Of a stretch of DNA of 64,000 nt, positions 57,648 through 57,697 are shown one piece after another (positions within the stretch are counted from its first letter, which is position 1; every line of letters starts with the position of its first letter). A model generated the notes under the pieces. That model was not told where the DNA came from. It saw only the letters and a program-made list of their open reading frames with translations, and made no database searches. The DNA comes from Escherichia coli. Its GTDB lineage: Bacteria > Pseudomonadota > Gammaproteobacteria > Enterobacterales > Enterobacteriaceae. Location of the stretch: NCBI RefSeq assembly GCF_041248615.1, contig NZ_CP158426.1; one strand, given 5' to 3'. The translations under genes were made by a program, and so were the position numbers.

Positions 57648-57697
57648 GTGACCGCTTGGACGGTCACTTTTAAGAGAAGGCATTAACAGAGAATGGT
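57648..57697 (+). mobile_element. IS1414-like right-end remnant (last ~50 bp of an IS256-family element)
   Basis: About 87% identical to 51688..51747 of the intact copy; still encodes ...DRLDGHF stop, the transposase C-terminus. Confidence 0.75.

Follow-up and report, generated by a model that had tools for sequence, protein, structure and literature searches.

The window analysed here is a stretch of 64,000 nucleotides from the chromosome of Escherichia coli NRZ14408 (NZ_LT599825.1), of which positions 50300–57850 correspond to 562300–569850 of the record. It contains the end of an rRNA operon, with a 23S gene reaching to 49801, a 5S gene (49896–50011), tRNA-Thr (50026–50101), and a second 5S gene (50141–50256; annotation of L001), and, downstream of the segment described below, the minus-strand genes yhdZ, yhdY, and yhdX. 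The operon is rrnD, the window aligning with the rrfF–yhdZ spacer of K-12. The following features lie between the second 5S gene and yhdZ:

50262–50305, plus strand: first rrnD terminator, a T1-like hairpin with T-run 3′ of the second 5S gene (terminator scan; K-12 alignment)
50425–50432, unstranded: left copy of the target-site duplication, 8 bp, ATCAAATC, abutting the IS1414 left end
50433–51747, plus strand: intact IS1414, 1,315 bp (RefSeq: IS256-like element IS1414 family transposase)
50505–51713, plus strand: IS1414 tnp, a Mutator-type DDE transposase of 402 aa (Pfam PF00872 Transposase_mut, E = 2.7e-119; list of open reading frames)
51220–51336, plus strand: astA, EAST1 enterotoxin of 38 aa (MPSTQYIRRPASSYASCIWCATACASCHGRTTKPSLAT), in another frame of tnp (six-frame search)
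51748–57644, unstranded: 5.9 kb of cargo from an iha pathogenicity island (annotation of L001; same block in island context in L002, L003, L004, and L006)
52079–52745, minus strand: ABC ATPase, frameshifted (annotation)
52748–53302, minus strand: iron ABC permease fragment (annotation)
53399–55378, minus strand: phoX alkaline phosphatase, intact (Pfam PF05787 PhoX, E = 1e-165; weak TAT-signal match)
56021–56724, plus strand: IS3-type fragment (Pfam HTH_Tnp_1 and HTH_21 found in the cargo)
57176–57505, plus strand: ISL3-family fragment (DNA homology to about 57549–57556)
57645–57707, plus strand: IS1414-like right-end relic, with the last transposase codons DRLDGHF-stop at 57650–57673 and the right inverted repeat
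57708–57715, unstranded: right copy of the target-site duplication, 8 bp, ATCAAATC, abutting the relic end
57720–57747, unstranded: second rrnD terminator, a T2-like bidirectional hairpin shared with the convergent yhdZ (57770–58528, minus strand; terminator scan, K-12 alignment, annotation)

IS1414, reportedly the subject of McVeigh et al. in 2000, is represented in the window by a copy with an intact transposase gene, whose left inverted repeat starts GAGCCTGTACATAG and whose right one ends TAAACAGGCTC. It is identical (1315/1315) to two further copies at the donor locus described below; relative to the common IS1414, the allele of NRZ14408 has six nucleotide and two amino-acid differences, the latter at positions 122 and 178. 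The strain is rich in the element (∼13 left ends and ∼15 right ends). Amplification of IS1414 up to 11 copies has been published (PMC12585946), a maximum that is exceeded by the ∼13–15 ends on the NRZ14408 chromosome. That astA is embedded in IS1414 is a known feature (PMC12585946), and in the window copy its reading frame is complete and prototype-like. Both tnp and astA are co-directional with rrnD and start ∼200 bp past the T1 terminator, ahead of T2 (window 50262–50505). Read-through from the rrnD promoter, which is among the strongest of the cell, could raise the expression of both genes at this copy.

When the intact element was compared with the whole 64-kb window by blastn, the sole secondary match was window 57645–57707, which aligns without gaps to IS1414 positions 1253–1315 (54/63 identical, i.e., 9 mismatches or 85.7% identity; E = 6.6e-15); all further matches had E values of at least 0.24. 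The earlier note on this DNA had described a remnant of the IS1414 right end at 57648–57697, with 8 mismatches and the DRLDGHF-stop codons retained. Exactly 8 mismatches lie in that interval, the codons are kept at 57650–57673, and the remnant is indeed the right end of an IS256-family, IS1414-like element. The homology, which is not due to chance, exceeds the earlier coordinates by 3 bp to the left and 10 bp to the right and reaches 57707, where the right inverted repeat of the relic terminates (...TAAACAGGCTC); the decisive final 10 bp of this repeat had been left off. The 24-mer GACCGCTTGGACGGTCACTTTTAA at 57650–57673 occurs otherwise only at 51690–51713 of the window, with three mismatches, and had zero matches in any shuffled sequence. 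An inverted-repeat search around the relic gave nothing meaningful.

The relic translates as ISDRLDGHF*, compared with FGDRLDGHF* in intact IS1414. Within its DRLDGHF* codons, there are three changes, all of them synonymous (CTG>TTG, TTC>TTT, and TGA>TAA), which fits a divergence that took place when selection still acted on the ancestral transposase. This pattern, although the synonymous changes are few, fits a relic that would belong to a separate lineage rather than stem from a decayed IS1414 copy.

The boundaries of the segment show how it came to lie at rrnD. In the window, the intact IS1414 lacks a private target duplication, as it is preceded by ATCAAATC and followed by GACAGTTG; these different 8-mers speak against a solo insertion of IS1414 at rrnD. 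In contrast, ATCAAATC abuts both the left end of IS1414 and the outermost base of the relic. The homologous spacer of K-12 MG1655 reads ...CTGCCAGACATCAAATCAAGCGAAAGGCC..., that is, it carries a single ATCAAATC between rrnD T1 and T2, and the site is empty. Except for one substitution, both flanks correspond to the K-12 rrnD spacer base for base. At two given positions, 8 bp would match by chance in ∼1 of 65,536 cases. Thus, because ATCAAATC is present at both outer edges and only once in K-12, the interval 50433–57707 (7,275 bp) was inserted as one transposon. The earlier note had stated that two distinct IS256-family copies built this region; two distinct elements are present, but they arrived together as one 7,275-bp unit and not through two insertions in place. 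Among 5,426 complete E. coli genomes, no other had a match spanning one or the other junction of the unit with rrnD, and the insertion was seen in a single assembly only.

The cargo is derived from a pathogenicity island. Its first 8 bp, GACAGTTG, are the right copy of the duplication that IS1414 made in the island, and its only undamaged passenger gene is phoX. In other E. coli genomes, the block consisting of cargo and relic lies inside a pathogenicity island together with iha, integrative-element genes, and an integrase, with AATATATTATGTTGTTGG... and an SgcJ/EcaC gene coming after the relic. The 63-bp relic was found by megablast in 50 of the 5,426 complete genomes, always on the chromosome and once in each, except for NRZ14408, which has it twice. 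The position of IS1414 relative to this block varies: GF4 has the block without an adjoining IS1414, in PKF11 and PKF4 IS1414 is found 38 bp more to the left, flanked by another duplication (GACATAAA), and in TUM1886 it lies by the block in the opposite orientation. Presence of the block in 50 genomes, with IS1414 absent or differently placed in these four, indicates that the relic is older than the IS1414 insertions and a property of the island. The claim of the earlier note that the remnant is not a recent duplicate of the intact copy is borne out by its 85.7% identity, by the same island position in 50 genomes, and by IS1414 lying beside the cargo in four records (H1–H4) only. Between the end of the ISL3 homology and the relic breakpoint, 57557–57644 (∼88 bp) had no match outside the 50 island-bearing genomes. 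An ISL3-like end initially placed near 57533, on account of an inverted-repeat-like motif, was replaced, as the ISL3 homology reaches about 57549–57556.

If the unit was mobilized from the island, the junction between island DNA and IS1414 at the donor can be predicted. A synthetic 517-bp query, assembled from L002 and the window, joined the island flank (...TATTCG-GACAGTTG) to the left end of the element (GAGCCTGTACATAG...). In all the genomes searched, a full, one-piece match at 100% was obtained only in NZ_LT599825.1 itself, at 2469038–2469554, which is ∼1.9 Mb from the rrnD copy on the same chromosome. PKF11 and PKF4 matched in two pieces only, because their insertion site differs. As a donor arrangement, these two strains were ruled out, the IS1414 located 38 bp further left and its different duplication GACATAAA representing an independent insertion. 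The order at the NRZ14408 donor (L006) is island flank, GACAGTTG, IS1414, GACAGTTG, cargo, relic, and island flank. Over the mobilized interval, L006 10250–17525 and window 50433–57708 are identical at 7,276 of 7,276 positions. A third identical IS1414 is present at the donor (L006 17542–18856), inverted, 17 bp past the relic, and flanked by its own 8-bp duplication TGTTGTTG; the other IS1414 insertions are thus also marked by 8-bp duplications (GACAGTTG and TGTTGTTG in NRZ14408, GACATAAA in PKF11). In the other relic genomes examined, the cargo runs on into island DNA without a break, and no other complete genome matches at the rrnD junctions; the direction of transfer was from the island to rrnD. 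As a consequence, phoX is now present twice in the NRZ14408 genome (the second copy, at L006 13216–15195, encodes the same protein, WP_000533456.1), and, as astA is complete inside IS1414, the 7.3-kb transposition also added another copy of this gene.

What has been observed comprises the structure of the unit and its target duplication, an empty site in K-12, a donor that is 100% identical, and the direction of transfer. Taken together, they argue that 50433–57707 is, with a probability of about 90%, a compound transposon of 7,275 bp, with a complete IS1414 at one end and, at the other, nothing but the right end left over from an older IS1414-like element. The relic would then have to be regarded as a functional transposon end and not only as a scar.

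Several other histories could be envisaged for the same arrangement. In a two-step course of events, a solo insertion of an IS1414-type element at rrnD, generating the ATCAAATC duplication, would have been followed by an exchange with the island copy, through homologous recombination or through gene conversion, which imported both cargo and relic. The multicopy IS1414 of NRZ14408 would provide substrates for such recombination. However, the right crossover would be confined to the last 11 bp, the relic-specific bases all being present up to position 52 of 63 at 100% identity with the island relic, and recombination of the RecA type uses much more homology than 11 bp in a tract of 86% identity. 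Furthermore, an IS at this rrnD site was found in no other of the 5,426 genomes. This course is therefore considered improbable in the extreme sense of a few cases in a hundred. Even less credit can be given to an assembly artefact, in which the 7.3-kb repeat was misplaced into rrnD of NRZ14408. Assembly is difficult in repeats, to which both the unit and the rrn operons belong, and the arrangement comes from one assembly only; still, a misjoin would neither stop exactly where two inverted repeats end nor yield an exact 8-bp duplication of a target that is single copy in K-12, and the flanks are those of the K-12 rrnD spacer save for one substitution. A larger composite of the type IS1414(+)...IS1414(−), subsequently shortened, was rejected, as it needs a deletion that ended exactly at the last base of the relic while the duplication was kept. 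Recombination in two steps, misassembly, and a larger composite each have a likelihood of no more than a few percent. Least probable of all is a passive scar, left by two independent IS256-family insertions near rrnD of which one decayed in place into a relic without a role: it would suit a relic that is diverged and in practice non-coding, but it is refuted by the empty site in K-12, the donor junction, and the donor identity, and it disagrees with a target duplication that brackets the whole unit, with relic and 5.9 kb of left-hand neighbours being island DNA found elsewhere in 50 genomes, and with the lack of any other complete genome matching across the rrnD junctions of the unit.

How the compound transposon may have formed and moved can be set out step by step. 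An IS1414-like element of a different lineage would have been present in an iha-type island and later been truncated to 63 bp, the state found in 50 genomes. In the lineage of NRZ14408, an active, astA-carrying IS1414 would then have inserted 5.9 kb upstream of the relic in the same orientation, duplicating GACAGTTG. In the simplest account, its transposase would have paired the left inverted repeat of that copy with the right one of the relic, skipping the right end of IS1414 itself. Finally, the whole interval would have been copied out as a 7.3-kb circle and pasted between T1 and T2 of rrnD, duplicating ATCAAATC, with the donor staying in place. IS256-family elements transpose by copy-out/paste-in via a double-stranded circle and generate 8-bp duplications (PMC7780238), and the retained donor copy fits this mode. 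We infer the circular intermediate from what is known of the family (IS256 and ISCth4; PMC7780238). Some findings count against the model. Five of the 34 terminal base pairs of the relic differ from the IS1414 right repeat, two of them in or beside the subterminal motif, which argues against easy use of this end; the event comes from a single assembly; and the third IS1414, 17 bp past the relic in the donor, may have arrived before or after the transposition.

The suitability of the relic end as a transposase substrate can be judged from its sequence. Read inward, the ends are GAGCCTGTACATAGATTTGTGTAATTGCC (IS1414 left), GAGCCTGTTTAGGATTCTGTGTAAATGCC (IS1414 right), and GAGCCTGTTTACCATTCTCTGTTAATGCC (relic). 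The terminal 11 bp of the relic (GAGCCTGTTTA on the complementary strand) are those of the IS1414 right repeat, and the outermost 8 of them also agree with the left repeat; across the six ends that were aligned, the terminus does not vary. Each inverted repeat of the IS256 family contains a conserved subterminal TGTAAA motif (PMC7780238, citing Dodd 1994), and it is to a motif of this type that the transposases of the family are thought to bind (PMC7780238). It reads TGTAAA in the right and TGTAAT in the left repeat of IS1414, and TGTTAA in the relic, which has an additional G>C change 2 bp away. Like the functional left repeat, the relic motif is one change from the consensus, but this change is at a position that is invariant in the other five ends; in fact, both changed positions (in TGTTAA and the G>C) are invariant among the five other IS1414-type ends aligned. 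Use of the relic end despite these subterminal changes would thus be mildly unexpected.

A much wider reading is that the IS1414 transposase tolerates ∼14% divergence of an end, including changes in the motif, that decayed ends are latent transposon ends, and that this amounts to a general route for shuffling virulence islands, coupled to the spread of astA. Matches to the IS1414 right end at 80–90% identity are present in more than 2,000 of the 5,426 E. coli genomes. The generalization is speculative, and we regard it as unlikely to hold. If it were true, an active IS1414 landing near a decayed end could mobilize the intervening island or plasmid DNA, by a route so far undescribed.

The lineage from which the relic stems was sought in several collections. 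A full-length element with the relic's end was not recovered from E. coli: megablast of the 63 bp against the 5,426 genomes returned the island relic only (50 genomes), never under a transposase gene, and by blastn the next-best matches in these genomes were at most 88.9% identical. Among the blastn matches listed for 72,556 PLSDB plasmids, the best was again 88.9%, with two more records in the 90–95% band, and no full-length element of the relic lineage was found. A degenerate inverted-repeat pattern retrieved 10 loci from 100,044 GTDB species representatives, all of them IS1414-type ends with 54–55 of 63 positions identical to the relic, and an exact 29-mer scan of metagenomes yielded three contigs, all in island context.

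The relic was therefore placed by shared and private substitutions, 63 bp being too short for a real phylogeny. It has six private substitutions, absent from every other sampled end. Decayed and frameshifted IS1414-like elements, 82–83% identical over the full length, are present on a plasmid of EC11 (L020) and on the chromosome of LHM10-1 beside yafV (L021); their right ends have the GG of the relic at positions 51–52, and one of them also the A at position 3. Moreover, most E. coli genomes have matches to the IS1414 left end at 80–95%, which indicates that old relatives of IS1414 are widespread as relics. By ISfinder convention, elements sharing an IS name are roughly at least 95% identical at the DNA level; at 85.7% over 63 bp, the relic falls short of IS1414 proper. 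From these comparisons of sequence, the relic appears to lie within the IS1414 group of the IS256 family and outside IS1414 proper.

Two matches to IS1414 outside E. coli came to light in addition. On seven contigs of Acerihabitans arboris SAP-6 (L007–L013), a right end identical to that of the E. coli element at 62 of 63 positions lies close to an edge of each retrieved stretch, at a distance of ∼120 bp, which suggests that a near-identical IS has expanded in this distant, plant-associated enterobacterium. A metagenome-assembled genome labelled Collinsella sp. (L015) is identical to Klebsiella pneumoniae ATCC 13883 (L016) over 63 bp of an IS1414-like right end; the Collinsella match is probably a binning contaminant or the result of recent transfer.

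The unit falls between three known kinds of mobile element, namely IS256-family compound transposons of the Tn4001 type, units formed with alternative ends in the manner of ISEcp1, and non-autonomous elements that consist of ends only. Tn4001 is a compound, or composite, transposon of the IS256 family. As in elements of that type, IS-derived ends in the correct orientation bracket a passenger, a single transposase mobilizes the entire unit, and the insertion is flanked by an 8-bp duplication. Unlike them, the unit has one complete IS only, its other end is a 63-bp relic of an 86%-identical lineage, and the passenger consists of island debris and phoX, with no resistance gene. Bracketed cargo, target duplication, donor, and empty site, all of which characterize a compound transposon, are present; the classical definition, however, includes two complete IS copies, and no second IS copy was found by blastn inside 50433–57707. 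Compound elements are mentioned as a general class in the literature on the family (PMC7780238). The likeness of the relic to IS1414 itself extends over the last 63 bp, with the same terminal 11 bp. What has been published on IS1414 covers its amplification and decay, and not the mobilization of adjacent DNA (PMC12585946).

The alternative ends used by ISEcp1, a member of the IS1380 family, are fortuitous, weakly similar sequences. As with ISEcp1, the right end of the element itself was skipped, an end further downstream was used, and adjacent DNA was carried along, with a target duplication as the result; unlike with ISEcp1, the end used here is a homologous inverted repeat with transposase codons, left behind by an earlier, related element. 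MITEs, mobile insertion cassettes, and the Tn3-derived TIMEs have inverted-repeat ends without a transposase and are mobilized by a related one. The unit differs from these in that one of its ends belongs to the autonomous IS that travels along, and only the other is an orphan. Transposition units of ISEcp1 with alternative right ends have been described (PMC6061673).

That compound transposons exist and that surrogate ends can be used is, in principle, already well known. What the NRZ14408 chromosome adds is a case in which donor, product, and empty site are available at base-pair resolution, with donor and product in one genome and zero mismatches between them. It would represent a clean natural example of an IS256-family transposase moving 7.3 kb of chromosomal DNA with no more than an orphan end of 63 bp from a diverged relative, and it offers a test, set by nature, of the extent to which the ends may diverge and still be accepted by the transposase. 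IS1414, which in the published picture amplifies itself and astA, can also relocate island genes, here duplicating phoX. For the annotation of mobile elements, and for the evolution of the islands in which they accumulate, relic IS ends should be considered potentially functional and not inert scars.
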